A stretch of DNA of 64,000 nt from an uncultured Actinomycetes bacterium. GTDB taxonomy: Bacteria > Actinomycetota > UBA4738 > HRBIN12. Location of the stretch: assembly GCA_963705545.1 (NCBI GenBank), contig CAVPJX010000002.1:109468-173467 (forward strand). Direction: 5' to 3'. The notes under the pieces were generated by a model. It saw only the letters and a list, made by a program, of their open reading frames with translations. It ran no database searches and was not told the origin of the DNA. How positions within the stretch are numbered: the stretch's first letter is position 1; each line of letters opens with the position of its first letter. Position numbers and translations under genes: made by a program. Below are positions 6,849-53,787 of this stretch, piece by piece.

Positions 6849-8068
6849 CCGATGCCAGCGTCGTCGCCGTCGGGACGCCGCAGTCCTTCCGCCAGCAGAT
6901 CGCCCGGGCCCTCGAGGTCGAGATGGACGAGATCGGCTGGGTGCAGTCGGCCACGGCCGCGGAGGAGCTCCTGATCAACGCCTACAACCCGGTCGACGTG
7001 ATGGTGCTGTCGCCCGAGGTCAAGGAACAGGACGCGCTCGGCCTGGCGGAGTTCATGGGCCGCCAGGCCCCGGGCACGGCGATCGTGCTCGTCCGCGACC
7101 ACACGTGGAACGGCTTGCTTCCGGCCGCGATGCGCGCGGGGATCCGCGACGTCGTGGACATGACCCAGGGCAACGACGAGCTCCGCGAGGCCGTGGAGCG
7201 CGCCGTCCTGTGGGCCACGAACCTGCGCAGCGCCGCGGGTCCGCAGCGCGACGGCGGCCCCGCCCAGCGCGGGCACGTGATCTCGGTCTTCTCGTCGAAG
7301 GGCGGTTCGGGCAAGACCTTCCTCGTCACGAACCTGGCCGCCTCGATCGCCGACATCACCGGGCAGGACACGGCGGTCGTCGACCTCGACACCGACATGG
7401 GCGACGTCTTCACCTACTGGGGCCGTGAGCCGATCGCGCGGCTCGAGGACCTGATGGGCATCGGCGAGGGCGGCGAGCACGACAAGATCCGCGAGGTCGG
7501 GGTCCAGTTCGATCAGCACGTCTGGGGGTACGGCACGCCGCCCGATCCCTCGACCGAGCCGCCCGCCGGTGAGGCCGTCGGCAAGTTCCTGCGGACGCTC
7601 CGAGCTGACTTCCCGTGGGTCGTCGTGGACGCCTCGGTGGACTATTCGGACTCCGCGCTCGTCTGTTTCGACCTGTCGGACGCGATCTGCCTGGTGACCC
7701 CCCTCGACGTCGTGGGGGTGAAGCACCTGTCCAAGGCGCTCGACACGCTGCTGACGATCGGGTTGCCACGCGACCGGTTCCGCGTCGTGCTGAACCGAGC
7801 CGACAGCAAGGTCGGACTCGACTCCGGCGACGTCGAGCGCGTGATGAAGGTCGAGGTGGACGTGATGATCCCCTCGAGCCGCCTGGTGCCGACGGCGCTG
7901 AACAAGGGGCGCCCCGTCGTGCTCGACGAGCCCGGCTCGGACGTCTCGACCGCGGTGCGCCACCTGGCGACGAAGCTCACGCATCAGTTCAGCGGCGCCG
8001 AAGCGGGCGCCGCCGATCCGAACGGCAACGGCAAGGGCAAGAAGCGGAAGCTGTTCTCGAAGGCGTAA
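6845..8068 (+). CDS. cpaE: pilus assembly ATPase CpaE/TadZ (receiver-like N-domain + ParA/MinD-type ATPase)
   Basis: The ATG at 6845 overlaps the cpaB stop (ATGA). Walker A reads VFSSKGGSGKTFLVTNLA. The N-terminal region is a pseudo-receiver, as in TadZ. Confidence 0.8.
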   Translation: MTDASVVAVGTPQSFRQQIARALEVEMDEIGWVQSATAAEELLINAYNPVDVMVLSPEVKEQDALGLAEFMGRQAPGTAIVLVRDHTWNGLLPAAMRAGIRDVVDMTQGNDELREAVERAVLWATNLRSAAGPQRDGGPAQRGHVISVFSSKGGSGKTFLVTNLAASIADITGQDTAVVDLDTDMGDVFTYWGREPIARLEDLMGIGEGGEHDKIREVGVQFDQHVWGYGTPPDPSTEPPAGEAVGKFLRTLRADFPWVVVDASVDYSDSALVCFDLSDAICLVTPLDVVGVKHLSKALDTLLTIGLPRDRFRVVLNRADSKVGLDSGDVERVMKVEVDVMIPSSRLVPTALNKGRPVVLDEPGSDVSTAVRHLATKLTHQFSGAEAGAADPNGNGKGKKRKLFSKA

Positions 8069-37830: not shown

Positions 37831-38706
37831 ATGGTGCAGCGGCGGCGGGCGGGTCTCTCGGGCGTGAGCGGCTCGGGGACCGCGGGCCCGGTCATGGTGA
37901 TCGGCGGCGCCGAGGACAAGCTCCGGGACAAGGCGATCCTCGCGCGCTTCGCGAAGTTCGCCGAAGGACCCGACGGCCACGTCGTCGTGATCTCGACCGC
38001 GTCGTCGATGGGCGACCTCGCCACCGAGGCGTACCGCGAGCTCTTCGAGGGGCTCGGGATCGGCCGGGTGACCGGGCTGCGCCCCGAGGACCGCGAGGAG
38101 GCGATGGACCCGGTGCTGGGGGCCGAGCTCGCGAGCGCCTCAGGGGTGTTCCTCACCGGCGGGAACCAGTCCCGGCTGGCGCAGGTGGTCGCCGGCACGC
38201 GCCTCGGGGACGCGCTGTTCCTGGCGCACGACCGCGGCGCGGTCCTCGCCGGCACGTCGGCGGGCGCGAGCGCGATGGCCTCGCACATGGTGGCGTTCGG
38301 GCGCTCGGGATCGACCCCGAAGAACCGGATGGCGCAGCTGTCGGCAGGCCTCGGGATCCTGCAGGGGATCGTGATCGACCAGCACTTCGAGCAGCGCGGG
38401 AGGATCGGCCGCCTGCTCGCGATCGTGGCGGGCTCTCCCTCCCTCCTGGGCGTCGGCCTGGACGAGGACACCTGCGCCGTCGTCTTCGCCGACCAGAGCC
38501 TTCACGTGATCGGCCGCGGCGCCGTCACGATCGTGGACGGCTCGATGGTCAAGACCGACGCCTACCGCGGGAAGGGGTATCGTCCGCTCATGATCTCCGG
38601 GGCGGTCCTGCACACGCTCCCCTCGGGCTATTGGTTCGACCTGCGGACCCGGAGGCTGCTCGCGGGCGAGGGTCTCCAGGGGGTGGAGCGGGAGGCGTCG
38701 GAGTGA
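37831..38706 (+). CDS. cphB: cyanophycinase (peptidase S51)
   Basis: 291 aa. ...VMVIGGAEDK...VFLTGGNQSRL...LAGTSAGASAM (catalytic Ser)...IVIDQHFEQRGRIGRL. Confidence 0.85.
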   Translation: MVQRRRAGLSGVSGSGTAGPVMVIGGAEDKLRDKAILARFAKFAEGPDGHVVVISTASSMGDLATEAYRELFEGLGIGRVTGLRPEDREEAMDPVLGAELASASGVFLTGGNQSRLAQVVAGTRLGDALFLAHDRGAVLAGTSAGASAMASHMVAFGRSGSTPKNRMAQLSAGLGILQGIVIDQHFEQRGRIGRLLAIVAGSPSLLGVGLDEDTCAVVFADQSLHVIGRGAVTIVDGSMVKTDAYRGKGYRPLMISGAVLHTLPSGYWFDLRTRRLLAGEGLQGVEREASE

Positions 38707-41558
38707 CGTCCGCGCGCACCCGGACGCGGGGCGACCGGGAGCGTGCCAAGCGCGAGCCGGCGTCGAAGAAGCCGGGGAGGGCGAAGCCGGACCTCCAGAT
38801 CCTGCAGACCCAGGTCTTCCGCGGTCCCAACTACTGGTCCTACGAGCCGTGCATCCGGATGCTCGTGGACCTCGGGTCGCTCGAGGACTGGCCGTCCAAC
38901 ACGATCCCCGGGTTCAACGCGAAGCTGCTGAAGGCGCTCCCCGGGGTGGGCGAGCATTCGTGCTCGCTCGGCAAGAGCGGGGGGTTCCGCGAGCGGCTCG
39001 CCGACGGGACGTGGCTCGGTCACGTCTGCGAGCACGTCGCGCTCGAGCTGCAGCGGGAGTCGGGGGCACACATCACCCGCGGGAAGACCCGCAGCGCGGG
39101 CGAGCCCGGTCGCTACCACGTGATCTACGGCTACGCGGAGGAGCGCGTCGGCCGCGCGGCGGGGGAGCTCGCGATCCGCCTCCTGAATCACCTGATCAAG
39201 GCCGAGGCGGACTTCGACTTCGACGCGGAGCTCGAGCGGCTGATCCTGCTGGCCGAGCGGCGGCAGTTCGGCCCGTCGACCCAGGCGATCCTGGACGAGG
39301 CGACGGGACGGGACATCCCCTTCATCCGGTTGAACGAGGCCTCGCTGGTGCAGCTCGGCCAGGGCAGGTACCAACAGCGGATCCGGGCCACGATGACGTC
39401 GCAGACCTCCGCCCTCGCGGTCGATGTGGCGGGCGACAAGAAGATGACGAACCAGCTCCTCGCGGCCGCCGGGCTCCCGGTGCCGCGGAGCGAGGTGGTG
39501 CGGGCCGAGGACCACGCGGTCGCGGCCGCCAAGCGGATCGGCTTCCCGGTCGTGACGAAGCCGCTCGACGGCAACCACGGCCGCGGTGTCGGTCTGGGCC
39601 TGCGGACCGAGCGGGCCGTGCGGACCGGCTTCCGGCGGGCGCTCAAGGAGTCGCGGGGCGGGCGCGTCGTGGTCGAGTCCTTCGTCACGGGCAACGATTA
39701 CCGGATGCTCGTGATCGGCGGGCGCATGGTGGCGATCGCGGAGCGGGTGCCGGCGCACGTGGTCGGCGACGGGAGGCGGACCGTCGCCGAGCTCGTCGAG
39801 AAGACGAACCAGGACCCGCGACGCGGGATCGGTCACGAGAAGGTGCTCACGCGGATCAAGGTCGACGAGGCCGCGACGGAGCTCGTGAAGAAGCAGGGGT
39901 TCCAGATCGACGAGATCCCACCGAAGGGGGAGCGCGTCCTGCTCGCGGCGACCGGCAACATGTCGACCGGCGGCATCTCGATCGACCGGACCTGGGAGGC
40001 GCACGAGGACAACGTCGAGATCGCCGAGGAGGCGGCCCGGGTGGTGGGTCTCGACGTCGCCGGGATCGACTTCCTGGCGCCCGACATCTCGCAGCCGGTG
40101 CGGGAGACGGGAGGCGCGATCGTCGAGGTGAACGCCGCACCCGGGTTCCGGATGCACACGCATCCGACCGAGGGCGAGCCGCAGTACGTCGCGAAGTACG
40201 TGGTCGACCTGCTCTACCCACCCGGGACGCCCTCGCGGATCCCGATCGTCGCGGTGACCGGTTCCAACGGTAAGACGACGACGACCCGGATGATCGCGCA
40301 CATCTTCCGGGGGATGGGTCGTCAGGTCGGCGTGACGTCGACCGACGGGATCTACATCGACGAGCGGCTCGTCAAGCGCGTGGACGCGAGCGGACCGAAG
40401 TCCGCGCAGATGGTGCTGCAGAACCCTCGGGTGGACATGGCCGTCTTCGAGGTGGCGCGCGGCGGGATCCTGCGCGAGGGGCTCGGCTACGGTCGCAACG
40501 ACGTCGGCGTCGTGCTGAACGTCACCGGGGATCACCTCGGCCTGCGGGACATCCACACGATCGAGGAGCTCGCGGCGGTCAAGCGAGTGGTGGTCGAGGC
40601 CGTGCCCCGCAACGGGTGGGCGGTCCTGAACGCCGACGACCCGCTCGTCCTGGACATGCGGCGGCACTCGAGCGGCAACGTGATCCTGTTCTCGATGGCC
40701 GAGAAGCCCGAGTTCGTCGAGCGGTGGATCCGACGTGGACACAAGGCGGTCGTGCTGGAGCAGACGCCCCGCGGCGAGATGATGGTGATCAGGGAAGGTC
40801 GGCGGACGATGCCGATCGCGTGGGTCCACACGCTCCCCGCGACCTTCGACGGCAAAGCGCGCATGATGGTGCAGAACGCGATGGCCGCCGCCGCGGCCGC
40901 GCACGTCGCCGGAGCCCACCTCCACGACATCCGTCAGGGCCTGCGGTCGTTCACGACGTCGATGTATCAGGCGCCGGGACGCCTCAACCTGTTCGACCTC
41001 GACGGCATCCGCGTCCTGATCGACTACGCCCACAACGCGGCGGGTCTGGATACGGTGGGCGACTTCGTCGATCGGATGACCGCCGACGTGTCCTCAGGCG
41101 AGCAGCCGGGCGGGGCGTCGTGGACCGCGAACCTGCGGGTGGCCGTCGTCGCGACCGCGGGCGACCGTCGCGACGAGGACATCCGGGAGCTGGGGAGGGT
41201 CGCCGCGCGGTACTTCGACGAGGTGATCGTCCGCGAGGACCACAACCCCCGTGGGCGCCGGAAGGGCGAGACGGCCGAGCTGATCCTGCAAGGCGTGCGG
41301 GAGTCGATCGCGAGCGGGCAGGGCCGGGCCGGGCACGCCGAGGTGGTGCTCGACGAGATGGAGGCGACGCGGCGGGCGCTCGATCGCAGCCGCCCGGGCG
41401 ACCTCGTGGTCCTCTGCGTCGACTACGCGACCGACGTGTACCGCGAGCTCGAGAGCCGAACGGGCGCGGCGGCGCCACAGGTGCTGCGGGCCTCGGAGGA
41501 CGGAGCGACGGTGGAGGCGGCGGGCGGCGACCCCGACCTCATGTCCGCCGACGCCTGA
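38703..41558 (+). CDS. cphA: cyanophycin synthetase (N domain + ATP-grasp + Mur-ligase domains)
   Basis: 951 aa. The GTG overlaps the cphB stop (GTGA). N domain LQTQVFRGPNYWSYEPCIRMLVDLG, ATP-grasp (VVTKPLDGNHGRGV...), M domain (VTGSNGKTTTTRMIAH...VLNADDP). Confidence 0.9.
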   Translation: MTSARTRTRGDRERAKREPASKKPGRAKPDLQILQTQVFRGPNYWSYEPCIRMLVDLGSLEDWPSNTIPGFNAKLLKALPGVGEHSCSLGKSGGFRERLADGTWLGHVCEHVALELQRESGAHITRGKTRSAGEPGRYHVIYGYAEERVGRAAGELAIRLLNHLIKAEADFDFDAELERLILLAERRQFGPSTQAILDEATGRDIPFIRLNEASLVQLGQGRYQQRIRATMTSQTSALAVDVAGDKKMTNQLLAAAGLPVPRSEVVRAEDHAVAAAKRIGFPVVTKPLDGNHGRGVGLGLRTERAVRTGFRRALKESRGGRVVVESFVTGNDYRMLVIGGRMVAIAERVPAHVVGDGRRTVAELVEKTNQDPRRGIGHEKVLTRIKVDEAATELVKKQGFQIDEIPPKGERVLLAATGNMSTGGISIDRTWEAHEDNVEIAEEAARVVGLDVAGIDFLAPDISQPVRETGGAIVEVNAAPGFRMHTHPTEGEPQYVAKYVVDLLYPPGTPSRIPIVAVTGSNGKTTTTRMIAHIFRGMGRQVGVTSTDGIYIDERLVKRVDASGPKSAQMVLQNPRVDMAVFEVARGGILREGLGYGRNDVGVVLNVTGDHLGLRDIHTIEELAAVKRVVVEAVPRNGWAVLNADDPLVLDMRRHSSGNVILFSMAEKPEFVERWIRRGHKAVVLEQTPRGEMMVIREGRRTMPIAWVHTLPATFDGKARMMVQNAMAAAAAAHVAGAHLHDIRQGLRSFTTSMYQAPGRLNLFDLDGIRVLIDYAHNAAGLDTVGDFVDRMTADVSSGEQPGGASWTANLRVAVVATAGDRRDEDIRELGRVAARYFDEVIVREDHNPRGRRKGETAELILQGVRESIASGQGRAGHAEVVLDEMEATRRALDRSRPGDLVVLCVDYATDVYRELESRTGAAAPQVLRASEDGATVEAAGGDPDLMSADA

Positions 41559-41900
41559 GTGGATCTCGAACGGGTCAAGCGCGAGCTGGAGGCTCGACGC
41601 GACGAGCTCCGGTCATCGCTCGGGGTGCTCGTCGAGGTCCGTCGGGACCCCGCCGCTTCGGTCTCGTTCGGGAAGCGCGTCGGCGACGGTACGACGGAGG
41701 CGGTCGAGCGCATCAACCAGACGTCTGCGGCGCGATCGCTCGCCGGAACCCTGCAGGCCGTCGAGGCCGCCCTCGGCCGGATCGCCGAAGGCACCTACGG
41801 GGTGTGCGTCCGGTGCGGTGCGCAGATCCCCGCCGAGCGTCTGGACGCCATCCCCTGGACCCCCTACTGCGTGGCCTGCAGCCGCGAGGTCGCCGACTGA
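41559..41900 (+). CDS. DksA/TraR-family C4-type zinc-finger protein
   Basis: 113 aa, GTG start. ...GTYGVCVRCGAQIPAERLDAIPWTPYCVACSRE. Confidence 0.6.
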   Translation: MDLERVKRELEARRDELRSSLGVLVEVRRDPAASVSFGKRVGDGTTEAVERINQTSAARSLAGTLQAVEAALGRIAEGTYGVCVRCGAQIPAERLDAIPWTPYCVACSREVAD

Positions 41901-43847
41901 GCCACCGGTTCCGTCCGGCTCTGCGCCGGGGTCCCGATGACCGGCCTCGGCATGGATCACGTGCATCAACGCGTTGATCAGCGCGAGGTGCGTGAACGCC
42001 TGCGGGAAGTTCCCCAGGTGCCGTCCGCTCGTCGGGTCGAGCTCCTCGGCGTAGAGCCCGAGCGGGCTCGCGAGCGAGAGGAGCTTCTCGCACAGGCGCC
42101 GCGCCCGGTCGATCTCGCCGATCTCGACGAGCGCCGACACCAACCAGAACGAACAGATCGCGAACGTCGCCTCCTCGCCCTCCAGACCATCCTCGCTCCG
42201 GTCGGTCCGGTACCGCAGCACGAGGTCGTTGACGCTCAGCTCGTCGGCGATCGCCAGCACCGTCGCTCGAGCCACCGGGTGATCGGGCGGCAGGAACCCC
42301 ATCAGGACCGCGAGCAGGGACGACGCGTCGAGCGAGTCCGATCCGTACCGCTGCGTGAGCACGCCGCGCCCGTCCACGCCGTGGGCGAGCACGTCCGCGC
42401 GGATCGCGTCGGCCTCGGTGCGCCAGCGAACGGCCATCCCCGGCTCGTCCATCGCCTCGGCCAGGCGGGCAGCGCGGTCGCACGCGACCCAGCACATGAT
42501 CTTCGACGAGGTGAAGTGATCGGGCGCGGATCGGACCTCCCACACGCCCTGATCCGGCTCGCGCCAACGGCTCGCCGCTTGATCCGCGATCCGTACGAGC
42601 TCGGCCCAGGTCACGCCGGTCACGTGCTCGCCGGCGCCCAGGTGGAGCAGCACGGAATCGAGCAGCGCCCCCCACACGTCGTTCTGCTGCTGCCGGTAGG
42701 CGTCGTTGCCCACCCGCACCGGCCGCGAGCCCTCGTACCCGGACAGGTGGTCGAGGGTGCGCTCCGTGAGGTCACGCTCGCCGCCGACGCCGTACAGCAC
42801 CTGGAGCGGCGCGTCCTCGCCGATCCGGTCCGCGATGAAGTGGAAGAAGTCGCGCGCCTCGTTCGCGAAGCCGAGCGTGTACAGGCCCCACAGGGCCCAC
42901 GTGGCGTCGCGCACCCACGTGTAGCGGTAATCCCAGTTCCGCTCACCCCCCGTGATCTCGGGGAGCGACGTCGTCGGCGCGGCGAGCAGCGCGCCGGTCG
43001 GAGCGTAGGTAAGCCCCTTCAGGGTGAGGGCGCTCCGCTGCAGGACCGGTCGCCATGGGTGATCGGGGAAGTTCCCCCCCACGACCCAGCCGCGCCAGAA
43101 GTCGCCGGTCAGCCGCAGGCACTCCTCGGCCTCGTCCACATCGGCCGGCGGACGGCCGTCGCTCCACGAGAGGGCGACGAAGGCGCGGTCGCCCTCCTGC
43201 ATGGTCGTGTGCGCGCGCGCCGTGCGTCCCTCGAGACCGAGCCGAAGATCCGTGGTGAGGCGGAGCAACGGGTCCTCCGGTTCGCCTGTGGCGATCGCCT
43301 CCCCGTATCCCGGGCCCGCGTACGCCCAGTCCGCGTCCCGCAGCCCGTACCCGAACACCGGCTCGCACCGGACCTCCAGGTCGACCTGTCCGTTGATGCA
43401 CTTGATCGTGCGCACGAGGACGTGGTCGGCGCGGAAGTCGTCGGGCGGCCGGACGTATTCTTGCTCCCGTCGCTCATCCGCCCAGCGCCGGACGGCCAGG
43501 GCGGTCCGCACGATGAGCCAACCCGAACGCGTCTGCCAGGTGGTCTCGAGCACGTTCGTCCCGGGGAGGTAGCGGCGGCCGGCCGGGACCGACAGCTCGT
43601 CCGGACCGACGCGGAAGCTCCCGGCGGCCCGGTCGAGGATCGCGCCGAACACGCTCGGTCCGTCCGGGCGGGGGATGCACAGCCACTCCACGTCTCCGGA
43701 AGGGGACACGAGCGCCATCGCCTCGCGGTCGGAGAGGAACGCGTACTCCGCGATCGGGAAGAACGCGCCGGGCTGCGGCCAGCCGAACGGCATCCCGACC
43801 GGCGGCGCGTCGTGGCGCGCCTCGGGGTCCGAGAGCGGGCGGTCCAT
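41613..43847 (-). CDS. glycoside hydrolase family 15 (glucoamylase-like; actinobacterial GH15 trehalase type); the 3' end is probably a read-through
   Basis: 744-aa ORF. The GH15 core reads ...GERNWDYRYTWVRDATWALWGLYTLGFANEARDFF...WEVRSAPDHFTSSKIMCWVACDRA... Family members are usually about 640-670 aa. The last about 90 codons overlap the dksA-like gene antisense. A 1-nt deletion in the ccccgg run near 41925 would terminate at about 41866. Confidence 0.7.
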   Translation of the reverse strand: MDRPLSDPEARHDAPPVGMPFGWPQPGAFFPIAEYAFLSDREAMALVSPSGDVEWLCIPRPDGPSVFGAILDRAAGSFRVGPDELSVPAGRRYLPGTNVLETTWQTRSGWLIVRTALAVRRWADERREQEYVRPPDDFRADHVLVRTIKCINGQVDLEVRCEPVFGYGLRDADWAYAGPGYGEAIATGEPEDPLLRLTTDLRLGLEGRTARAHTTMQEGDRAFVALSWSDGRPPADVDEAEECLRLTGDFWRGWVVGGNFPDHPWRPVLQRSALTLKGLTYAPTGALLAAPTTSLPEITGGERNWDYRYTWVRDATWALWGLYTLGFANEARDFFHFIADRIGEDAPLQVLYGVGGERDLTERTLDHLSGYEGSRPVRVGNDAYRQQQNDVWGALLDSVLLHLGAGEHVTGVTWAELVRIADQAASRWREPDQGVWEVRSAPDHFTSSKIMCWVACDRAARLAEAMDEPGMAVRWRTEADAIRADVLAHGVDGRGVLTQRYGSDSLDASSLLAVLMGFLPPDHPVARATVLAIADELSVNDLVLRYRTDRSEDGLEGEEATFAICSFWLVSALVEIGEIDRARRLCEKLLSLASPLGLYAEELDPTSGRHLGNFPQAFTHLALINALMHVIHAEAGHRDPGAEPDGTGGSVGDLAAAGHAVGGPGDGVQTLGGDLRTAPDAHPVGAFGDPAEGGLDGLQGSGERSRRRRLVDALDRLRRTVADALPERDRSGGVPTDLDEHPER

Positions 43848-43904
43848 CCGGCCAGTCTAGGACCGTCCGGACCTGGTTCCCGAGACCACCCGTACGATGA
43901 CGAC

Positions 43905-44658
43905 GTGAGCCTCTCCGATGCGCGCGAGCGCGCCCTCGCGGCGCTGCTCCGCGATCCGGCCCGCTCGGCGATCCTGCTCGACTTCGACGGGACGCTCAGC
44001 CCGATCGTGGAGCACCCGGACCTCGCGCGGATCGCGCCGGGCGTCCGTGCTGCACTCGCGCGGCTCGCGCCCATCTACGCCCTGGTGGCCGTCGTCAGCG
44101 GCCGCCCCGCGGACGAGGTCGGACGGCTGGTCGCCGTGGAGGGCGTTCAGATCGAGGGCCTCTACGGCCTGGAGGGGGGCCCCGACCTGCCCGCGGTGCC
44201 CGGCGACGTCGGCGCGGAGGTCGAGCGCGTCGCCGTCGAGCTCCCCGGCTCGCTCGTGGAGCACAAGGGGGCGACGATCGCCCTGCACGTGCGTGGGCGC
44301 CCGCGATCCGGACGCGGCCGAGATCTTCGCGGCCCGGGCGCTCGGACCCATCGCGTCGGCGTCGGGCATGCGCCTGCTGACCGGCAAGCGTGTGGTGGAG
44401 CTCGTCCCGGTCGACGCGCCGCTGAAGGACCGGGCGGTACGACGGCTGATCGACGCCACCGGTGCCGAGGCCGCGCTGTACGCGGGCGACGACGCCGCGG
44501 ACCTCGACGCGTTCGCCGCACTCGACGAGGCCCCGGTCGACGCGGTCAAGGTCGCGGTCCGTGGACCCGAGACGCCCCTCCCGGTCGTCACGGCGGCCGA
44601 CGTGGTCGTCGACGGTCCCGAAGGCATGGCGGAGCTCCTGCGCGACCTGATCCCCTGA
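43905..44658 (+). pseudogene. otsB: trehalose-6-phosphate phosphatase OtsB; frameshifted near 44292
   Basis: HAD motif ILLDFDGTLSP is in the 41937 frame. The C-terminus (...RDPDAAEIFAARALGPIASASGMRLLTGKRVVELVPVDAPLKD...YAGDDAADLDAFAAL...) is in the 43918..44658 frame. One extra g (gtgggcgcc) separates them. Confidence 0.75.
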
Positions 44659-44685
44659 CCAGCCCGACCGGTCGCGGCGTGCGGA

Positions 44686-46158
44686 CTAGGCGGCGGGCCG
44701 GATCCGGTCGACCGCCTCGAGCTGCTCCGTGAGCCAGGTCGCGGGCGTGTGCGCCTGGATCGTCCGCGAGAGCCCGCGGGCCCGTCGGGCGCGATCCTCG
44801 GCGGGCATCTCGAGCGCCGCGCGGATCGCCTCGGCGGTCTCGGAGAGGTCGAACGGGTTGATCGCCAGCGCGTGCCGGCCGAGGCGACCGAAGGCACCCG
44901 CGTTGCGCGACAGGATCAATGCCCCGCGGCGCCGGTTCACGAGCGGCCCCTCCATCGCGACCAGGTTCATCCCGTCGTAGACCGGGTTGACCAGGAGCGC
45001 GTCGTACGCGCCGTAGGCGGCGACGGCATATCGGTAATCCTCCTGCACGCGTACGTCGATCGGCGTCCAGCCGTCGCCGCCGAGCGCGGCGTTGATCCGG
45101 TCCGCCTCGGCCAGGCATTCCTGGCCGTAGTCCTGGTACGCGGGCACGTCCTCGCGGGACGGGCTGAGGAGGGCGAGGAACCGGACCCGCCCGCGCCACG
45201 ATGGGTTCCGCTCCAGGAAGAGCTCGTACGCGAGGAACCCGCGCAGGATGTTCTTCGTCGGCTCGAGCCGGTCGACCCGCAGCAGGAGCGCTCGGTCGCC
45301 GCGCTCGCGCTCGACCTCGGCGCGCATCGCACGGACCTCCGGCTCGGTCGCCGTCTGGCGGATCGCGGCCGCGTTGACCGCGACCGGGAACGTCCGGACC
45401 GCGGTCGCGTGCGGTCCGTCGGAGACGCGCCAGCGTCGGAGGTCGACGCGGACGCCGGCGAGGCTCCGGCAGGACAGCAGGAAGTTCTCGGCCCAGGTCC
45501 GGCTCTGGAAGCCCACGACGTCGGCACCGGCCATCCCGCGCAGGATCGCGGCGCGCATCCCCACGGGCAGGGTCCGCATGTAGCTCGCCCCCGCGAACGG
45601 GGTGTGCGAGAAGTGCACGATCTTCGCCTCGGGCCGGAGCTCGCGGAGCATCGCCGGGACGAGCGCGAGGTGGTAGTCCTGGATCAGGAACACCGGCTCG
45701 TCGCCGCTCACCTGGGCGAGGACGGTCGCGAAGGCCCGGTTCGCCTCCTCGTACGCCTGCCAATCCCTCGCGGTGTCGTCCCCGAACACCGGCGAGCGCG
45801 GCAGGTCCCACAGGTAATGGTGGAGGAACCACAGCACGCCGTTCGCGATCCGGTTGTAGTACGCGTCGTAGCGTTCGGGCGGGATCCGGACGAACCGGAC
45901 CCGGATCCCCGCGTCGTGCGTGACGTCCGTGTCCGCCTCCGCGGCCTCGTGGTCGCCGGCCGTCATCGCCGCGGAGACCCACGTGATGTCGTCGCGGAAG
46001 AACACGCTCGAGAGCGCCGTCACGAGGCCGCCGGAGCCGCGGCGCGGCACCGACAGGCCGGCCTCGTCGCGCTCGAAGGAGACCGGGCCACGGTTCGACG
46101 CGACCACGATCGGGGACTCGATCGCGGGCACGGACACGTCCGACGGGGGTCCGGGCAT
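44686..46158 (-). CDS. otsA: alpha,alpha-trehalose-phosphate synthase (GT20)
   Basis: 490 aa. ...IVVASNRGPVSFE...LWFLHHYLWD...VFLIQDYHLALVPAMLR... Confidence 0.9.
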   Translation of the reverse strand: MPGPPSDVSVPAIESPIVVASNRGPVSFERDEAGLSVPRRGSGGLVTALSSVFFRDDITWVSAAMTAGDHEAAEADTDVTHDAGIRVRFVRIPPERYDAYYNRIANGVLWFLHHYLWDLPRSPVFGDDTARDWQAYEEANRAFATVLAQVSGDEPVFLIQDYHLALVPAMLRELRPEAKIVHFSHTPFAGASYMRTLPVGMRAAILRGMAGADVVGFQSRTWAENFLLSCRSLAGVRVDLRRWRVSDGPHATAVRTFPVAVNAAAIRQTATEPEVRAMRAEVERERGDRALLLRVDRLEPTKNILRGFLAYELFLERNPSWRGRVRFLALLSPSREDVPAYQDYGQECLAEADRINAALGGDGWTPIDVRVQEDYRYAVAAYGAYDALLVNPVYDGMNLVAMEGPLVNRRRGALILSRNAGAFGRLGRHALAINPFDLSETAEAIRAALEMPAEDRARRARGLSRTIQAHTPATWLTEQLEAVDRIRPAA

Positions 46159-46167
46159 CCGGGCAGT

Positions 46168-47937
46168 CTAGCCCCGGGTCGCGACGGCCTCGGTCCGGGC
46201 CCGACGGGGCGGGCGATCGGAGGCCCGGACGCGCGAGGCCGCCGCCCGCCGCACCAACCGGCGGACGTCGCCGGGCCCGAGGCGCACCGCTCCCGCCTCG
46301 TCGAGCCAGGCGAAGATCGCCGGCCGCATGCCGAGCGCGGTCACGCTGACGACGTCGCCCGTGGACGATCGCTCGATCATCCCTCGGAGCGCGTGCAGCT
46401 CGTCCTCGTAGACCGCCACGTCGTCGGTGCCCGCCTTGGCGGCGCCCGTCCGGAGCTGATGCACGACGTCCTCCCGCGTGCGACCGCGGAGGTAGTGGGC
46501 GAGCTCCGCGATGGCGACGTGGTCCGCCCCCACGGCGGCGCGGAACGCGAAGGCGTGCAGGATCGCGTCGGTCCGGTCCCCGGCGGTGCAGATCGCCAGC
46601 CAGGTCGCGCGCCCCGACGTGCGGAGGCCGTCGAGCACCTCGGTGAGCCCGATCATCCCTGCCTCGTTGTGGGCGTAGTCGATCACGACGATCCGGCCGT
46701 TCAGGCGGAACAGGTTCGCCCGGCCGGGGTTGCGCTCGGGATCGAGCACGAACGTCTTCAGCCCGCGTGCCACCGCTCGAGGCGGCAGCCCGATCGCGAG
46801 GCCCGCCGCAGCCGCGGCGAGGGCGTTGTGGAGGTTGACCCGGGAGATCCCCGCGAGGGTCACCGGCACGTCGACGAGGGGGATGATCGGGTGCGTGTCG
46901 TGACGCTCGATCCAGGCGAGGCGCCCGTCGAGCACCGTCATCACGCGGCCGCCCTCCCGCAGGACCTCGGGGATCACCGGATGGTCGGGGTGGAGCGAGC
47001 AGATCCACGGCCGCCCGGTCGCGTGACGGCGCATCGCCAGCACCCGGGGATCGTCGGCGTTCAGCACGTCCCAGCCGGCGGGCCGGGTGATCCGGGTGAC
47101 GATCGCCTTCACCTCCGCCAGTTGGTCGACCGTGTCGACGCCGTGCAGGCCGAGGTGGTCCTCGCTCACGTTCGTCACGACCGCGACGTCGTTGTGGCGC
47201 ACGCCGACGCCGCGCAGCAGCATGCCTCCTCGCGCGGTCTCCAGGACCGCGACGTCGGGATGCTGCGCCAACGCGCGGGCCGCCCCGCCGAACCCCGAGT
47301 AGTCGCCGGCCTCCACCAGGACCCCGTCGTCGCGGTACACGCCGTCCGTCGTGGAGTAGGCGACGCCTAGGCCGGCCGAGCGGACCAGGTGGGCCAGGAG
47401 CCGGACCGTCGTGGTCTTGCCGTTCGTCCCGGTGACCTGGATCACCGAGGTATCCGGATCGGGCACGGTGGGCTCCGCGCCAGGCTCGACGTCCCGCAGC
47501 CGGGCGCCGGCCTCGGCGATCACCCGGTCGGGGGAGCGGCGCCGGATCAGCTCGAGGGCCGAGGCGGCCTCCGTCGCGAGCGCCTCCGCGGCGCCGCGAC
47601 GACGCCACGGGAACGCGACGACGATCAGGTCCGGCCCCGGGCCGCTGCGGGCCCGCACGGCGAGGCGGCGGGCCCCACCCGCGACGGCGATCCGCCGAGT
47701 GAGCTGGGCGGCGATGCGGCCGATCGCGCGCCGCCGTTGCTCGGTCCCGGGCGCGCCGGCCCGGAACGTGCTGCTCGAGCCGAGCCGGACGGCCGATCGG
47801 ATCACCGCCTCCTCGGAGGCGCCCATCCAGCCCGGTACCGAGAGCGTCAGCTTGATCGCGGGACGCGGGAAGAACAGGTTCGGTCCGTCGAGGACCCGCA
47901 GCTCCACCGTCCCCACCGGTCCGCGCAGGCGGGTCAT
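46168..47937 (-). CDS. cyanophycin-synthetase-like protein with CphA N-domain + Mur-ligase (M) domain but no ATP-grasp domain
   Basis: 589 aa. N-terminus (VELRVLDGPNLFFPRPAIKLTLSV) parallels the CphA N domain (LQTQVFRGPNYWSYEPCIRMLVDL). It is followed directly by a Mur-ligase domain (VIQVTGTNGKTTTVRLLAH...VLETARGGMLLRGVGVRHNDVAVVTNVSEDHLGLHGVDTVDQLAEVK...VLNADDP). No ATP-grasp segment is present. Confidence 0.75.
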   Translation of the reverse strand: MTRLRGPVGTVELRVLDGPNLFFPRPAIKLTLSVPGWMGASEEAVIRSAVRLGSSSTFRAGAPGTEQRRRAIGRIAAQLTRRIAVAGGARRLAVRARSGPGPDLIVVAFPWRRRGAAEALATEAASALELIRRRSPDRVIAEAGARLRDVEPGAEPTVPDPDTSVIQVTGTNGKTTTVRLLAHLVRSAGLGVAYSTTDGVYRDDGVLVEAGDYSGFGGAARALAQHPDVAVLETARGGMLLRGVGVRHNDVAVVTNVSEDHLGLHGVDTVDQLAEVKAIVTRITRPAGWDVLNADDPRVLAMRRHATGRPWICSLHPDHPVIPEVLREGGRVMTVLDGRLAWIERHDTHPIIPLVDVPVTLAGISRVNLHNALAAAAAGLAIGLPPRAVARGLKTFVLDPERNPGRANLFRLNGRIVVIDYAHNEAGMIGLTEVLDGLRTSGRATWLAICTAGDRTDAILHAFAFRAAVGADHVAIAELAHYLRGRTREDVVHQLRTGAAKAGTDDVAVYEDELHALRGMIERSSTGDVVSVTALGMRPAIFAWLDEAGAVRLGPGDVRRLVRRAAASRVRASDRPPRRARTEAVATRG

Positions 47938-47951
47938 CCGCGAACGCTATC

Positions 47952-49217
47952 TCAGGCCGCGACCTCGGCGCGATACCGGCGGAGCTCCGGGTAGAGCGCC
48001 GCCACCACGCCGGCGCCGACGATGCACGCGAGGCCCCCGGTCACGACCGAGATCGTCGGGGTGAACGCCTGCGCGACGACGCCCGCCTCGAAGTCGCCTA
48101 GGCGCGGCCCTCCCGTCACGACCAGCGTGAAGAGCGCGCCCAGCCGTCCTCGCAGATGGTCCGGCGTGGTCACCTGCAGGATCGTGCTGCGGAAGATCGC
48201 CGAGATCACGTCCGCCGCGCCCGCGACGGCCAGGAAGAGGAGGGCGAGCCAGAGCTTCGAGCCGACGAGCCCGAACGCCACGATCGCGGCGCCCCACCCG
48301 ACCACCGACCACACCACCGCGACCCCTTGGTGCACGACGTGCTTCGCCCACCCCGACGCGACCGCCTGCAGCAGCGCTCCGACCGAGGGGGCGGCGAACA
48401 GGAGCCCGACGACCGCAGCCCCTCGATGGAACTGCGAGATCGCGATCACGGGGAACAGCGCCACCGGCAGCCCGAAGATCATCGCGATGAGGTCGATCAC
48501 GAACGTCGATTGGATCAATCGGTTCCGGCGGACGAACCCGAACCCCTCGGCGACCGCGCGCCGGCCGCGCACGGCGCCGTCGGTCCGCTCCGGTGGCATG
48601 GGGTGCATCGCGATCGCGGCGACGAGCAGCGCGCCGTAGGTGGCCAGGTTGAACCAGTACGGCAACGCGACCCCATCGGTGGCGGCGATCGCCAGGCCAC
48701 CCATCGCCGGACCCACGATCGAGACGGTCTGCCAGCCAACCTGGTTGAGGGTGACCGCCGAGGGCACGAGACGCGTGCCCACGAGCCGGGGGATCATCGC
48801 CTGGCGCGCCGGGCTCTCGATCGCCGACGTGAAGGCCATGATCGCGTTCGCCACGAAGACGAGCCACAGCCCGGACCGGCCGAGGGTCGCGCTCATCACC
48901 AGCATCGCGGACGCCCCGATCAGGGCGACCTGGGTCCAGGCGAGCGTGATCCGTCGGTCGTGGGCGTCGATGAATCCGCTGCCGATCAGCGTCCCCAGCA
49001 CGAGCGCGACGAACCCCGTGAGCCCGATCATCCCCACCGCGGCGGTCGATCGGGTCAGGTCGAAGACCTGGATGTAGATCGCGGTCCTCGCCACCTGCAC
49101 GCCGAGCGCCGAGACGAACCCGGCGAAGTAGAGCAGGCGGAAGTCCCGCGAGACACGCAGGGGGGTGACGTCGATCGCGATGCGACGCAGGCGGGACGGG
49201 CGCGTGGGTTCGCTCAC
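47952..49217 (-). CDS. MFS transporter
   Basis: 421 aa, about 12 TM helices. 14 nt upstream of the CphA-like gene on the same strand. Confidence 0.8.
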   Translation of the reverse strand: MSEPTRPSRLRRIAIDVTPLRVSRDFRLLYFAGFVSALGVQVARTAIYIQVFDLTRSTAAVGMIGLTGFVALVLGTLIGSGFIDAHDRRITLAWTQVALIGASAMLVMSATLGRSGLWLVFVANAIMAFTSAIESPARQAMIPRLVGTRLVPSAVTLNQVGWQTVSIVGPAMGGLAIAATDGVALPYWFNLATYGALLVAAIAMHPMPPERTDGAVRGRRAVAEGFGFVRRNRLIQSTFVIDLIAMIFGLPVALFPVIAISQFHRGAAVVGLLFAAPSVGALLQAVASGWAKHVVHQGVAVVWSVVGWGAAIVAFGLVGSKLWLALLFLAVAGAADVISAIFRSTILQVTTPDHLRGRLGALFTLVVTGGPRLGDFEAGVVAQAFTPTISVVTGGLACIVGAGVVAALYPELRRYRAEVAA

Positions 49218-49296
49218 TCGCGGCGGAAGCTAACAGCCGCACGGCACCGCGCCCGCGCGGTGGATGCGCCGGCGTCGCGCCATCGACCGGTGCCGG

Positions 49297-50637
49297 CTAC
49301 GCGCCGGCCACGTCCGCGATCGCCTGCTCCAGCACCCCGAGCCCGTCGTCGAGCAGCTCGTCGTCGATCGTGAGCGGGGGCAGCAGACGGATCACGTTGC
49401 CGTACGTTCCGGCCGTGAGGACGATCACGCCTTCTTCGAGGCACCGTCGAGCGATCGCGTTGATCCGATCGCCGGCGAGCGGCTCCTTCGAGTGGCGATC
49501 GGCGACGAGCTCGATCGCGCACATCGCGCCGCGGCCGCGAGCGTCGCCGATCGTGTCGAAGCGGTCCTGCATCGTGCGCAACCGCGCCAGGATCACGTCC
49601 CCGATCCGGCGTGCACGAACCAGCAGGTCCTCGCGTTCGATCTTGTCCAGGACGGCCAGTGCCGCCGCCGCCGCCACGGGGTTCGTGCCGTACGTCCCCC
49701 CGAGACCGCCGGGATGCACGCTGTCCATCAGCTCGGCGCGCCCGGTCACGGCCGAGATCGGGAGCCCCGCGCCGAGCGACTTCGCGGTGGTCACGATGTC
49801 CGGAACGATGCCTTCGTCTTCGATCGCGTACCACCGTCCCGCCCGGCCCATGCCGCTCTGGATCTCGTCGGCGATGAAGCAGATCCCGTGCTGCGCGCAG
49901 AAGTCCGCGAGCCCCTTCAGGAACCCGGGCGCGGGCACGACGAACCCGCCCTCGCCCTGGATCGGCTCGGCGATCACGGCCGCGATGTTCTCCTCCCCGA
50001 TGTGCTTGTGCATCTCGTCGATCGCGTAGGCGAGCGCCTCCTCCGCGCACCGGTCCGGGCCGGAGGGCCAGCGGTACGGGTAGGCGAAGGGGAGCCGGTA
50101 GACCTCGGGCGCGAAGGGGCCGAAGCCCTGCTTGTAGGGCATCACCTTGGCGGTCAGCGTCATCGCGAGGAGCGTCCGCCCGTGGAACGCGTGGTCGAAG
50201 GTCACGATCGCCGGACGTCGGGTGGCGTACCGGGCGACCTTCACCGCGTTCTCGACCGCCTCGGCACCCGAATTCGCGAAGAACGTCTTCTTCGGCATGT
50301 CGCCGGGCGTGAGGGCGTTCAGGCGCTCGGCCAGCTCGATCGAGGGCTCGTTCGCCGTGACGCCGGAGGTGTGCGTGTCGAGGTCGAGCTGGCGCTTCGC
50401 GGCGTCCATCACGTCCTCGGGCGCGTGGCCCACGTTCAGCACGGAGATCCCGGTCGCGAGGTCGATCAGCCGGTTGCCGTCGACGTCCTCGATGATCGCG
50501 CCCGACGCGCGGGCGACGACCACGGGATGGACCGGTGGGAAGGCGGAGGGCATCGACGCTGCGCGCCGGTCCACGAGCTCGCGCGACCGCGGTCCCGGGA
50601 TCTGGGTGAGGACCTTTCGTTCCTGGGGGATATCCAT
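49297..50637 (-). CDS. gabT: 4-aminobutyrate aminotransferase (class III PLP aminotransferase)
   Basis: 446 aa. ...[18 protein letters not shown]...[11 protein letters not shown] (PLP-Lys). Confidence 0.9.
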
Positions 50638-50825
50638 CTCGGACGCTCCTCGAGGCCGGCCCGCCCTCGCTCGCGGCGGGGTGTCGGACCCAGCCTAGCT
50701 GGCGGTGCCCCCATCGGCCTGCCCCATGTCGGGTGGTCTCTGCGAGTCCCTGCGGGGCATACTCCGGGTATCGGACGCACCGCGGCCCGGCCTCTGGTCG
50801 CGGGTCCGGCAGAAGGAGGGGAACG

Positions 50826-52262
50826 ATGGCGGACAGCTATCAGATGTTCATCGGCGGCGAGTGGGTGAACTCGTCCGACGGGCAGACCCGGGACATCATC
50901 AGCCCCCACACCGGCGAGGTGATCGCCTCGGTCCAGGAGGGGACCGCGGCCGACGTCGACAAGGCGGTCGCGGCGGCGAAGAAGGCCTTCGACGAGACCT
51001 GGTTCGACTCCACGCCGAAGGACCGCCAGCTCGCCCTCCTGAAGCTCGCGGACGCGATCGAGGCGAACGCCGACGAGATCGTGAAGATCGAGGCGCAGGA
51101 CGCCGGCAAGCCGGCCGCCGTGACGATGTCCGAGGAGATCCCGCCGATCGTCGACAACCTCCGCTTCTTCGCGGGCGCCGCGCGGACGCCGGAGGGCCGC
51201 AGCGCCGGCGAGTACATGGCGGGCTTCACCTCGATCATCCGGCGCGAGCCGATCGGCGTCGCCGGGCTGATCGCCCCGTGGAACTACCCGCTGATGATGG
51301 CGATCTGGAAGATCGGACCGGCGCTCGCGTCGGGAAACACGGTGGTCCTGAAGCCGTCGGAGATCACCCCGCTCTCCACGATCAAGCTCGCCGAGCTCGC
51401 GGCCGACATCTTCCCGGCCGGGGTCTTCAACGTCGTCACGGGCGACGGCGTGCCCGTCGGCGACCGGATCGTCCGGCACCCCGACGTGGGCATCGTCTCG
51501 CTCACCGGCGACGTCAACACCGGCAAGCTGATCCACTCCAACGCGAGCGACACGTTGAAGCGCGTCCACCTCGAGCTGGGTGGGAAGGCGCCCGTCGTGG
51601 TGTTCGACGACGCGGACCTCGCGTCGGCGATCGAGTGGATCTCGATCGCCGGCTACTTCAACGCGGGCCAGGACTGCACGGCCGCGTGCCGGGTGCTCGT
51701 CGCCGACGCCGCCTACGACCAGGTCCTGAGCGACCTGGTCCCGGCGGTCGAGGAGATCAAGGTCGGGACCGCGTTCGAGGAGGACGTGGCGGTCGGCTCG
51801 ATGATCAGCGAGGAGCAGCTCCAGCGGGTCGAGGGGTTCCTCGCACGAGCGAAGGACGACGGCGCCGAGATCCTGACCGGTGGCGCATCGCTCGGCACGG
51901 GGGGGTTCCACTTCCAACCCACCGTCGTGGCGAACCCGGCGCAGGACTCGGAGATCATCCAGAAGGAGGTCTTCGGTCCGGTCGTCACCGTGCAGCGGTT
52001 CTCCGATGAGGATCAGGCCGTCGCCTGGGCGAACGGGACCGACTACGGGCTCGCGTCGTCGGTCTGGACGCGCGACGTCGGCCGGGCCATGCGGATGTCC
52101 CGCCGGCTGCAGTTCGGATGCGTCTGGATCAACACGCACATCCCGCTGACCCCCGAGATGCCGCACGGCGGCTACAAGCAGAGCGGACATGGCAAGGACA
52201 TGTCGGTCTACTCGCTCGAGGACTACACGAACATCAAGCACGTGATGGTGTCGCTGGACTGA
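50826..52262 (+). CDS. NAD-dependent aldehyde dehydrogenase (aminobutyraldehyde / betaine-aldehyde DH-like)
   Basis: 478 aa. ...[15 protein letters not shown]...[11 protein letters not shown] (catalytic Cys)... Confidence 0.9.
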
Positions 52263-52356
52263 CCGGCTCGTCCGCGGTCAGCAGTCTGAGCCAGACTAGA
52301 GGGCGGCGCGGGCGGTGCCCGCAGGGTCCATCCGCGCCCCGGAGGGTGGTGAACCG

Positions 52357-53787
52357 ATGATGGCGGTACGACCGTTCCTGGTGAACGGCGAGTGGCGGAC
52401 CGGCGCGGGCTCGCTCGAGGTGAAGAGCCCGTACGACGACAGCGTCGTGGCCGAGATCGGCGTCCCCACCGCCGACGACGTCGAGGAGGCCGTCGCGACC
52501 GCGGCGGCGACGTTCGAGGAGTCGCAGCACCTGCCGATCCACGCGCGCGCCGATGCGCTCGACCACATCTCCCGGCGGCTGTCCGAGACGATCCCCGAGA
52601 ACGCCGAGCTGATCGCGCGCGAGGGCGGCAAGCCGCTCAAGTGGGCGACGGTCGAGGCGACGCGGGCCGTGTCCACGTTCCGCTGGGCGTCCGAGACGAT
52701 CCGCCACGGCGACGACGAACTGGTCCGGCTCGACACCGAGGCCGCGCTCGGCTCGCGGGTCGGGCTGATCCGGCGGTTCGCGCTCGGCCCGGTCCTCGGG
52801 ATCACGCCGTTCAACTTCCCGCTGAACCTCGTGGCGCACAAGGTCGCGCCGTCGCTCGGCGTGGGCGCGCCGATCGTCGTGAAGCCCGCGTCGGCCACGC
52901 CGATCGGGGCGCTGCGCCTGGCCGAGTTCTTCGCGGAGACCGAGCTGCCGAAGGGCATGTACCAGGTGCTCCCGGTCTCCTCGAAGGTGGCCGACGGGAT
53001 GGCGCGGGACGAGCGGTTCCGGAAGATCTCGTTCACGGGGTCGTCCGAGATCGGCTGGTACCTGAAGGGGCTCGATCCGAGGAAGCGCGTGACCCTCGAG
53101 CTGGGCGGCAACGCGGGCGTGATCGTGCACTCGGACGCGGATCTGGACCACGCGGCCCAACGCGTGGCCTTCGGCGGCTACTACCAGGCGGGTCAGAGCT
53201 GCATCAGCGTCCAGCGCGTGCTCGTGAGCTCGGAGGTCTACGACGACTTCGCGACCCGCCTCGTGAAGCAGGTCGAGAGCCTCAAGGTCGGCGACCCACT
53301 CGACCCCACCGTCGACGTGGGTCCGGTGATCCAGCGCTCCGAGGTCGACCGGATCGACGCATGGGTGAAGGAGGCGGTCTCCCAGGGCGCCGAGGTCCTG
53401 ACCGGCGGCGAGGCGGACGGTCCGTTCTACAAGCCCACCCTGATCTCCGACGTCACCCCCGAGATGAAGGTCTGCCGCGAGGAGGTCTTCGGGCCGGTCG
53501 TCACGATCAGCCCGTACCAGACCTTCGAGGATGCGCTCGCGACCGTGAACGACTCGCGGTTCGGCCTGCAGGCCGGCGTCTTCACGAACGACATCAACCG
53601 GGCGTTCCTGGCCCATCGGACGCTCGAGGTCGGCGGCGTGATCGTCAACGACGTGTCGGCGTTCCGCGCCGACCAGATGCCGTACGGGGGATCGAAGGAC
53701 TCCGGGTTCGGCCGCGAGGGGCTGCGGTTCGCGATGGAGGAGATGACCGAGCCGCGGATCATGGTCCTGTCGCACGTCCCGCTGTAG
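52357..53787 (+). CDS. aldehyde dehydrogenase family protein
   Basis: 476 aa. ...LELGGNAGVIVHSDADL...YQAGQSCISVQR (catalytic Cys)... Confidence 0.9.
   Translation: MMAVRPFLVNGEWRTGAGSLEVKSPYDDSVVAEIGVPTADDVEEAVATAAATFEESQHLPIHARADALDHISRRLSETIPENAELIAREGGKPLKWATVEATRAVSTFRWASETIRHGDDELVRLDTEAALGSRVGLIRRFALGPVLGITPFNFPLNLVAHKVAPSLGVGAPIVVKPASATPIGALRLAEFFAETELPKGMYQVLPVSSKVADGMARDERFRKISFTGSSEIGWYLKGLDPRKRVTLELGGNAGVIVHSDADLDHAAQRVAFGGYYQAGQSCISVQRVLVSSEVYDDFATRLVKQVESLKVGDPLDPTVDVGPVIQRSEVDRIDAWVKEAVSQGAEVLTGGEADGPFYKPTLISDVTPEMKVCREEVFGPVVTISPYQTFEDALATVNDSRFGLQAGVFTNDINRAFLAHRTLEVGGVIVNDVSAFRADQMPYGGSKDSGFGREGLRFAMEEMTEPRIMVLSHVPL

Follow-up and report, generated by a model that had tools for sequence, protein, structure and literature searches.

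We analyzed a stretch of 64,000 nucleotides (hereinafter the window) from contig CAVPJX010000002.1 of an uncultured Actinomycetes bacterium, in which a gene on the minus strand (46168–47937) codes for a protein of 589 residues combining two of the three domains of the cyanophycin synthetase CphA1, namely the N domain and the M domain resembling Mur ligases, without the ATP-grasp (G) domain. We propose that this N+M protein is probably a helper enzyme of the nitrogen-storage polymer cyanophycin. The G+C content of the window is about 72%, and its real genes are marked by a third-codon-position GC (GC3) of about 0.9; the open reading frame (ORF) of the N+M protein starts with ATG, has a GC3 of 0.94, i.e., at the level of these genes, and its translation has homologs in many metagenome-assembled genomes (MAGs). 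It belongs to a tight minus-strand string comprising, in this order, a gabT-like gene, an MFS_3 gene, the N+M gene, an otsA gene and, after a gap of about 830 bp, a GH15 gene. The MFS_3/EntS-like transporter gene (47952–49217, minus strand; Pfam MFS_3, E = 2.3e-39) lies 14 nucleotides upstream of the N+M gene and that for a GT20/OtsA-like trehalose-6-phosphate synthase (44686–46158, minus strand; Pfam Glyco_transf_20, E = 1.4e-106) 9 nucleotides downstream. Two plus-strand genes run toward this string, namely cphB, coding for a cyanophycinase (37831–38706; Peptidase_S51; TIGR02069, 237.8 bits against a cutoff of 126.6), and, directly after it, cphA (38703–41558), coding for a full-length CphA1 of 951 residues with N, G and M domains (TIGR02068, 1174 bits against a cutoff of 850), the end of which is 4.6 kb from that of the N+M gene. 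The GTG start of cphA overlaps the stop of cphB (GTGA), with a GGGAGG Shine–Dalgarno sequence 8 nucleotides upstream (window 38690–38706).

Pfam recognizes only two domains in the N+M protein, Mur_ligase_M (PF08245, residues 168–378; 64.3 bits against a cutoff of 24) and Mur_ligase_C (PF02875, residues 405–533; 32.8 bits against a cutoff of 28.4), with which it falls under the definition of the Mur ligase superfamily. The former corresponds to the core of the M domain (46804–47436, minus strand; E = 2e-17), which carries T197, E233, D260–H261 and K277 and includes the P-loop TGTNGKTT (residues 169–176; 47410–47433, minus strand), an element that is invariant in the family and aligns to the P-loop at 494–501 (K499, T500) of SuCphA1 and TeCphA1. 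The latter corresponds to the M lid (46339–46725, minus strand; E = 1.4e-7) bearing R406, H423 and the family-specific motif AELxHYLRGR (residues 477–486). While the CphA1 encoded in the window is matched by PF18921, by about eight ATP-grasp families and by both Mur domains, no ATP-grasp family in Pfam matches the N+M protein at E ≤ 0.1, and the same N+M architecture without ATP-grasp is present in every full-length family member examined. C-terminal to the lid is a basic extension (residues 550–589; 46171–46290, minus strand), which was delineated from the secondary structure and predicted local distance difference test (pLDDT) scores of a structural model together with a pairwise alignment to CphA; it consists of a predicted helix (residues 555–573) followed by a disordered end and has no counterpart in CphA1.

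Database scores separate this M domain from those of other Mur ligases. TIGR02068 reaches 328.4 bits on the N+M protein, below its cutoff of 850 and restricted to model positions 481–848, i.e., the M domain, while the models for MurC–F and FolC remain at or below about 80 bits, all far under their cutoffs, the best being MurE (about 80 bits; Mur cutoffs 257–476). Likewise, a sequence search against the PDB returns chains of CphA1 with E = 2e-58 (residues 163–498) and those of MurE with 1e-11 to 1e-6. Because the TIGR02068 and PDB scores so far exceed those of MurE, the M domain can be classified as specifically CphA-type.

The N-terminal region eludes most sequence searches. BLAST against the N domain of CphA gives a non-significant E = 0.19, PF18921 has no match in Pfam at E ≤ 0.1, and a hidden Markov model (HMM) built from 30 N regions of the family recovers only chance matches among PDB sequences (best E = 0.097, an aminotransferase). 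Against 1.84 billion representative sequences the same HMM retrieves 324 proteins, the best 150 of which include no CphA1 of about 900 residues, being all fragments or N+M proteins of about 560–585 residues. With the homology of the N domain thus invisible to plain HMMER searches, profile–profile and fold comparisons were needed to detect it. For an AlphaFold model of the N domain alone (residues 1–165, pLDDT 94.2), the first 15 PDB matches are all CphA1 or CphA2 structures (E = 2e-4 to 6e-2, probability 0.97–1.0, TM-score 0.49–0.61), and what follows them is noise of probability below 0.1. Comparing 61 N regions of the family with 43 N domains of partner CphAs, i.e., those encoded alongside N+M genes, hhalign aligns 106 columns at P = 9e-4 and places the GPN loops in register. 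At the level of predicted structure and remote homology we therefore recognize in the Arg-rich N region (residues 1–160; 47458–47937, minus strand) a CphA N domain without the peptidase motif: Cx19HxxEH, the metallopeptidase motif that makes CphA1 primer-independent (PMC9262961), is seen in 0 of 61 family members as against 46 of 46 partner CphA1s. The best-conserved N-domain motif in the family is the GPN loop (GPNLYFPRP); in the structures of CphA1 this hydrophobic loop packs on the M domain, and the cyanophycin substrate of the M domain sits between the N domain and the M core (PMC9427784; PMC9262961). The median net charge of the N domain is +9 in the close family as compared to −4 in the partner CphAs, a difference to which we attach little weight, the members at 41–45% identity appearing less Arg-rich on viewing the alignment.

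A model of the whole protein, generated with AlphaFold2 from an alignment of 40 sequences (mean pLDDT 88.8), shows the N domain (up to about residue 148) connected to the M domain (from residue 164) by a linker of 15 residues. Its best fold matches in the PDB are CphA1 structures (7lgq, 7lg5, 7lgj and 7wae) with a TM-score of 0.77, normalized to the 589-residue query, as compared to about 0.5 for the best MurE matches. The alignments run over the entire CphA1 chain (about 880 columns) while skipping the G domain of about 290 residues. Given that the M domain makes up about two-thirds of the query, a TM-score of this magnitude implies that the N domain is superposed too, and in the same position relative to the M domain; the predicted N fold and N-to-M packing are thus those of Synechocystis CphA1 (SuCphA1; PDB 7LG5/7LGQ). 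The weights of AlphaFold2 predate the CphA1 structures of 2021, so the model is no copy of them. These results bear on a prior sequence-only reading of this DNA, which had proposed the N+M architecture from a string in the N-terminal region (VELRVLDGPNLFFPRPAIKLTLSV, present at residues 11–34), its comparison with a string in CphA (LQTQVFRGPNYWSYEPCIRMLVDL, likewise present), the P-loop VTGTNGKTTT (present at residues 168–177) and the lack of an ATP-grasp segment. The latter is confirmed by both the domain scan and the skipped residues in the model, while the CphA-type N domain, for which the BLAST similarity alone would be insufficient, is upheld by the hhalign result and by fold matches that are confined to CphA1 and CphA2.

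The roles of the M-domain residues have been worked out for CphA1 (PMC9427784; PMC9262961) and were transferred to the N+M protein via an HMMER alignment to SuCphA1, which shares the numbering of TeCphA1. The P-loop residues K499 and T500 correspond to K174 and T175, the Mg ligands T522 and E558 to T197 and E233, and the lid residues touching the ATP phosphates, R731 and H748, to R406 and H423. The counterpart of the D585–H586 pair, the double alanine mutant of which has an inactive M domain in SuCphA1 (PMC9427784; PMC9262961), is D260–H261. All of these ATP- and Mg-related residues are invariant in 40 close homologs, 61 locus-derived sequences and nine members at 41–61% identity, and 84 M-domain positions are both invariant within and identical between the N+M family and the partner CphA1s. 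Judged from its sequence, the N+M protein appears to be an active amide ligase that depends on ATP and whose N domain is non-catalytic. Having an intact M machinery but no G domain, it is predicted to be capable of adding an amine to a carboxylate and incapable of building a backbone, polymerization being excluded in principle by the absence of the G domain.

Against this shared machinery, two elements depart from the M domain of CphA1. On the carboxylate side, the loop after the first Mg ligand displays a family hallmark, GD[YW][SA]G, that differs from CphA1. In the lid, the segment that is acidic in CphA1 (KEDDDKRGR in SuCphA1, REDHNPRGR in the CphA of the window) is replaced by AELxHYLRGR, or by xKxKYLRGR in diverged members, with Y482 being invariant. 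We presume this lid segment to be the equivalent of the DNPR motif of MurE, which selects the incoming amino acid; if this equivalence holds, the amine substrate may not be arginine.

To place the family relative to CphA1 we computed a neighbor-joining tree from the M domains of 27 sequences (384 columns, Kimura distances, rooted only at the midpoint). The N+M proteins are separated in 200/200 bootstraps from a CphA1 clade that comprises the cyanobacterial Su and Te enzymes, the gammaproteobacterial Tm enzyme and nine partner CphAs. M-domain identity is 31–40% between the two clades, as compared to 39–93% within CphA1, and the M domain of SuCphA1 aligns with that of the window CphA at 333 bits and with that of the N+M protein at 201 bits. 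This low identity and the separate clade rule out a recent deletion derivative of the adjacent cphA; on the evidence of the M-domain sequences, the N+M family is an old paralog of CphA1. In both clades the partner pairs (e.g., loci L062/L067, L060–61/L064 and the window/L013) follow a similar branching order, which suggests a long co-inheritance of the N+M gene and its partner cphA. It could also be that the N+M form is ancestral, with CphA1 having arisen from it by insertion of the G domain.

Beyond the window, homologs of about 570 residues with 66–100% identity are found in many MAGs, and a scan of species-representative genomes identified at least 579 matching stretches; the genome taxonomy and synteny counts reported here pertain to the best 80 of these. 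All 80 are from MAGs of Actinomycetota, Dormibacterota and Chloroflexota, plus a few others, while further members bear the labels Acidimicrobiales, Nocardioidaceae and Mycobacteriales. In public databases the family goes by the names "Mur ligase family protein" or "cyanophycin synthetase". Five longer members (P0132, P0355, P0362, P0382 and P0386; 727–745 residues) have a TPR domain fused C-terminally to the N+M body, a fusion that hints at protein–protein interaction.

The 80 loci were searched with the proteins neighboring the N+M gene in the window, each count being taken over the loci with enough flank. A cphA gene is present within 8 kb downstream in 43 of 50 loci, usually together with cphB (42 loci). 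An MFS gene directly upstream is seen in 46 of 67 loci, all from one sub-clade of Actinomycetota, and otsA downstream in 20 of 73. The GH15 gene occurs in 9 of the 80 loci, and it is only in a sub-clade that otsA and GH15 (41613–46158 in the window) stand between the N+M gene and cphA; the pair looks like an insertion at this position. Members at 57–61% identity (Dormibacterota, Chloroflexota and some Actinomycetes) have no MFS, gabT or otsA gene. Their upstream genes vary (ferrochelatase, a regulator, a fasciclin, a glycosyltransferase), and the N+M gene ends −14 to about 100 nucleotides from the end of a convergent cphA–cphB pair. In locus L067 (7066–7999), two overlapping ORFs (7066–7578 and 7484–7999) make up the ferrochelatase just upstream of the N+M gene, the split probably being due to a frameshift or to misassembly of the MAG. 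At the still lower identity of 41–45%, MFS and otsA genes are again absent, and cphA lies within about 2 kb in all of six lineages, mostly directly adjacent. P0215 has cphB, an ORF, cphA and, last, the N+M gene following one another on one strand, with 25 nucleotides between the last two; in P0213 cphA and the N+M gene share a strand, the latter lying 13 nucleotides downstream of the former's 3′ end; in P0212 and P0235 it abuts a convergent cphA (0 and 83 nucleotides, respectively); and in P0168 a convergent cphA is about 2 kb away.

Hence, cphA, usually with cphB, is the sole neighbor that is kept across the whole family, and the otsA/MFS context of the window is a lineage-specific overlay. 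An otsA/MFS operon as the family-wide key to function is ruled out by the synteny counts and by the variable upstream genes in other phyla. The sequence-only reading had put its emphasis on such an operon: the 14- and 9-nucleotide gaps on the minus strand are real, but the arrangement does not generalize. The profiling across relatives that it had suggested establishes co-occurrence with cphA, in 43 of 50 loci and in six of six diverged lineages.

Several other genes of the window merit mention. The GH15 trehalase-like gene (41613–43847, minus strand) is TreH1-like at 367 bits, below cutoff. Family searches find no assignable gene in the stretch between it and otsA (43848–44685), and an otsB at this place was rejected, the long ORF 43857–44897 appearing to be an off-frame artifact and having no family match. 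On the other side, gabT, coding for a class-III aminotransferase (49297–50637, minus strand; TIGR00700, 522 bits, above cutoff), an aminobutyraldehyde dehydrogenase gene (50733–52262, plus strand; PRK13473, 717 bits) and a second aldehyde dehydrogenase gene (52315–53787, plus strand) adjoin the MFS and N+M genes; a set of this kind is kept upstream of the N+M gene in 35–44 of the 80 related loci. By sequence, the three look like a catabolic set for putrescine/γ-aminobutyrate, a route downstream of arginine breakdown. Directly upstream of cphB, an HD_5/HD-domain protein of 568 residues (35858–37564) resembles c-di-GMP phosphodiesterase response regulators of the NosR family (129 bits, below cutoff) and may be a candidate regulator of the cyanophycin locus. 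A scan of 41400–50900 found no promoters or terminators, the scan being uninformative at the GC content of the window.

Two forms of cyanophycin synthetase provide the frame for comparison. With CphA1 the N+M protein shares the domain folds, their packing, the mapped catalytic residues and the genomic vicinity of the cphA–cphB pair; it differs in the lack of the G domain and of the Cx19HxxEH site, in a basic rather than acidic N domain, in the lid motif and the carboxylate-side loop, in the additional basic tail and in its separate clade. CphA2 (PDB 7TA5, 8FXH) is likewise a reduced CphA paralog with a non-catalytic N domain that coexists with CphA1, and its N domain is among the fold matches of the N domain described here. 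However, its reduction is reciprocal: CphA2 consists of the N domain, an active G domain and a truncated, inactive M domain (PMC10273328), whereas the N+M protein has a full, active-looking M domain and no G domain. Moreover, CphA2 is cyanobacterial, while the N+M family is found in MAGs of Actinomycetota, Chloroflexota and Dormibacterota. Judged by its domain content, the N+M form is thus distinct from both CphA1 (no G domain) and CphA2 (whose M domain is dead). MurE and MurF, while belonging to the same superfamily (Mur_ligase_M and Mur_ligase_C domains, P-loop, acyl-phosphate chemistry), are far more distant, and have a UDP-binding Mur N domain in place of the CphA N domain. In a published phylogeny of the Mur family, two sequences labeled "MurE" (Francisella noatunensis) and "MurF" (Solemya velum gill symbiont) cluster with CphA and not with MurE/F (bioRxiv 10.1101/2022.11.30.518518); these sequences, known here from that phylogeny only, may be other unrecognized CphA-like ligases. 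In the full-text literature searched we found no description of a G-less or N+M cyanophycin synthetase, and a survey of cyanophycin gene clusters published in 2023 is silent on the form.

The domain architecture and fold, an intact set of catalytic residues, linkage to cphA across phyla and a clade of its own are shown for the family; from them we infer the likely substrate, amine and physiological purpose of the protein. As the N+M protein is the very module that performs side-chain ligation in CphA1, a side-chain ligase acting in trans is the most economical reading, and we lean toward a catalytic role on a cyanophycin-type substrate, as a stand-alone side-chain ligase alongside CphA1 and CphB. 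As in CphA1, the groove formed by the N domain and the M core would accommodate an Asp-containing cyanophycin chain or oligomer. ATP bound at the P-loop (K174/T175, with Mg coordinated via T197 and E233, the D260–H261 pair, and R406 and H423 from the lid) would serve to phosphorylate a free β-carboxylate of aspartate, and the amine bound by the lid would then attack at the acyl phosphate, resulting in an isopeptide bond. In CphA1 the substrate of the M domain must end in an aspartate without arginine (PMC9427784; PMC9262961). Without an ATP-grasp domain the protein would be unable to extend poly-Asp and would thus have to act in trans on material made by CphA1, with the options of filling in or re-loading bare aspartates, capping chain ends or adding a side chain other than arginine.

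Several observations weigh against this proposal. In 7 of the 50 loci with 8 kb of downstream flank there is no cphA in range, although in 3 of these 7 an otsA/GH15 insertion has probably pushed cphA past the flank. The N+M gene and cphA are convergent, and not transcribed together, in most of the loci and in four of the six diverged lineages, and the tight packing with an exporter-like MFS gene in one sub-clade could mean a small, exported product. With an intact M domain in the partner CphA1 itself, the need for a second side-chain ligase is not obvious, and all 46 partner CphA1s keep the primer-generating Cx19HxxEH motif. The altered lid motif and GD[YW][SA]G loop indicate that the substrates may differ from those of the M domain of CphA1. 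Finally, there is no cultured carrier among the best 80 genomes or the named protein matches, all being uncultured MAGs.

It is to some of these observations that the competing explanations appeal. A small-molecule ligase would join free aspartate or another small carboxylate to an amine, yielding a dipeptide-like product (e.g., a β-Asp-X solute or signal) that the adjacent MFS protein would export in the actinobacterial sub-clade, alongside trehalose synthesis. Consistent with such an activity are the short gaps to the MFS_3 and otsA genes (14 and 9 nucleotides), the position of the MFS gene directly upstream in 46 of 67 loci, and motifs at the amine site and in the carboxylate loop that are unlike those of CphA1. 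We nevertheless consider it unlikely: MFS and otsA are absent in Dormibacterota, Chloroflexota and the diverged actinobacterial members, where cphA is always close; otsA and GH15 look inserted between the N+M gene and cphA; and the N domain is kept in a CphA1-like packing, suggesting a polymer or oligomer as the substrate. Of the two roles offered by the sequence-only reading, acting on or remodeling cyanophycin is thus better supported than the making of an exported amide product, since cphA/cphB is the conserved neighbor and the exporter a clade-specific one. The linkage to cphA would also suit a primer or dipeptide synthase, which would make β-Asp-Arg or short seeds from free aspartate and arginine and so give CphA1 a faster start on cyanophycin. 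The chemistry of the M domain is of the right type for this, and without primers the first ligations by CphA1 reportedly proceed very slowly (PMC9262961). Nonetheless, with 46 of 46 partner CphA1s keeping the Cx19HxxEH motif that renders them primer-independent, and with the acidic lid motif expected for arginine binding not conserved, we regard such a synthase as quite improbable.

The remaining explanations dispense with ligase chemistry on cyanophycin. As a structural or regulatory subunit, the protein would bind CphA1 or cyanophycin granules, its ligase chemistry being incidental or lost. CphA2, with its non-catalytic N and M domains (PMC10273328), is a precedent; the recurrent C-terminal TPR fusions and the basic tail suggest binding to proteins or polymers, and the similar branching order of N+M proteins and partner CphA1s is in line with such a partnership. 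However, the mapped ATP and Mg residues are invariant down to 41% identity, unlike in the truncated, inactive M domain of CphA2, making a non-enzymatic role very unlikely. An ordinary Mur/FolC-type ligase of cell wall or folate metabolism, which the sequence-only reading had named as one alternative that would overturn its proposal, could draw on the public label "Mur ligase family protein" and on the generic Mur domains that are all Pfam shows. This alternative is effectively refuted, with the M region scoring 328 bits against TIGR02068 versus at most about 80 bits against the MurC–F and FolC models, the PDB search favoring CphA1 (E = 2e-58) over MurE (1e-11 or worse) and the N domain having the CphA fold. 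The same verdict holds for a decayed cphA remnant, given an intact ORF with a coding-type GC3 that is kept in hundreds of genomes, forms a clade of its own and is not a truncated copy of its neighbor.

Returning to the trans-acting side-chain ligase, we may tentatively go a step further, to a possibility that we put forward with considerable doubt: many soil Actinomycetota, Chloroflexota and Dormibacterota might possess a two-synthetase cyanophycin system, in which CphA1 would polymerize and the N+M protein, in trans, would install a side chain other than arginine or cap or re-load aspartates; or else the N+M form might be ancestral. Such a system would make a cyanophycin-type polymer that is chemically distinct or regulated, and the loss of the acidic lid motif along with the basic N domain would reflect a different amine and a bound backbone that is anionic and poor in Arg. 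Lys, Orn, Cit and Glu are known as side chains of cyanophycin, a variation so far ascribed to CphA1 promiscuity alone (PMC8560796). If the N+M protein does add a different side chain or act in trans on a pre-formed backbone, it would be a tool for tailored cyanophycin variants.

The family also corrects a systematic annotation problem, its members having been labeled as "cyanophycin synthetase" or "Mur ligase family protein". Its genes occur in several hundred species-level genomes or more, spread over at least three phyla. The synthesis of cyanophycin has so far been a matter of CphA1 and CphA2; a third, reciprocal form encoded beside cphA would add an enzymatic step to a pathway considered to be well understood. 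The family would further bear on the origin of CphA1 itself, which may have come about when a G domain was inserted into an ancestor of the N+M type; alternatively, the N+M form may have arisen by the loss of the G domain from a CphA1-like ancestor.

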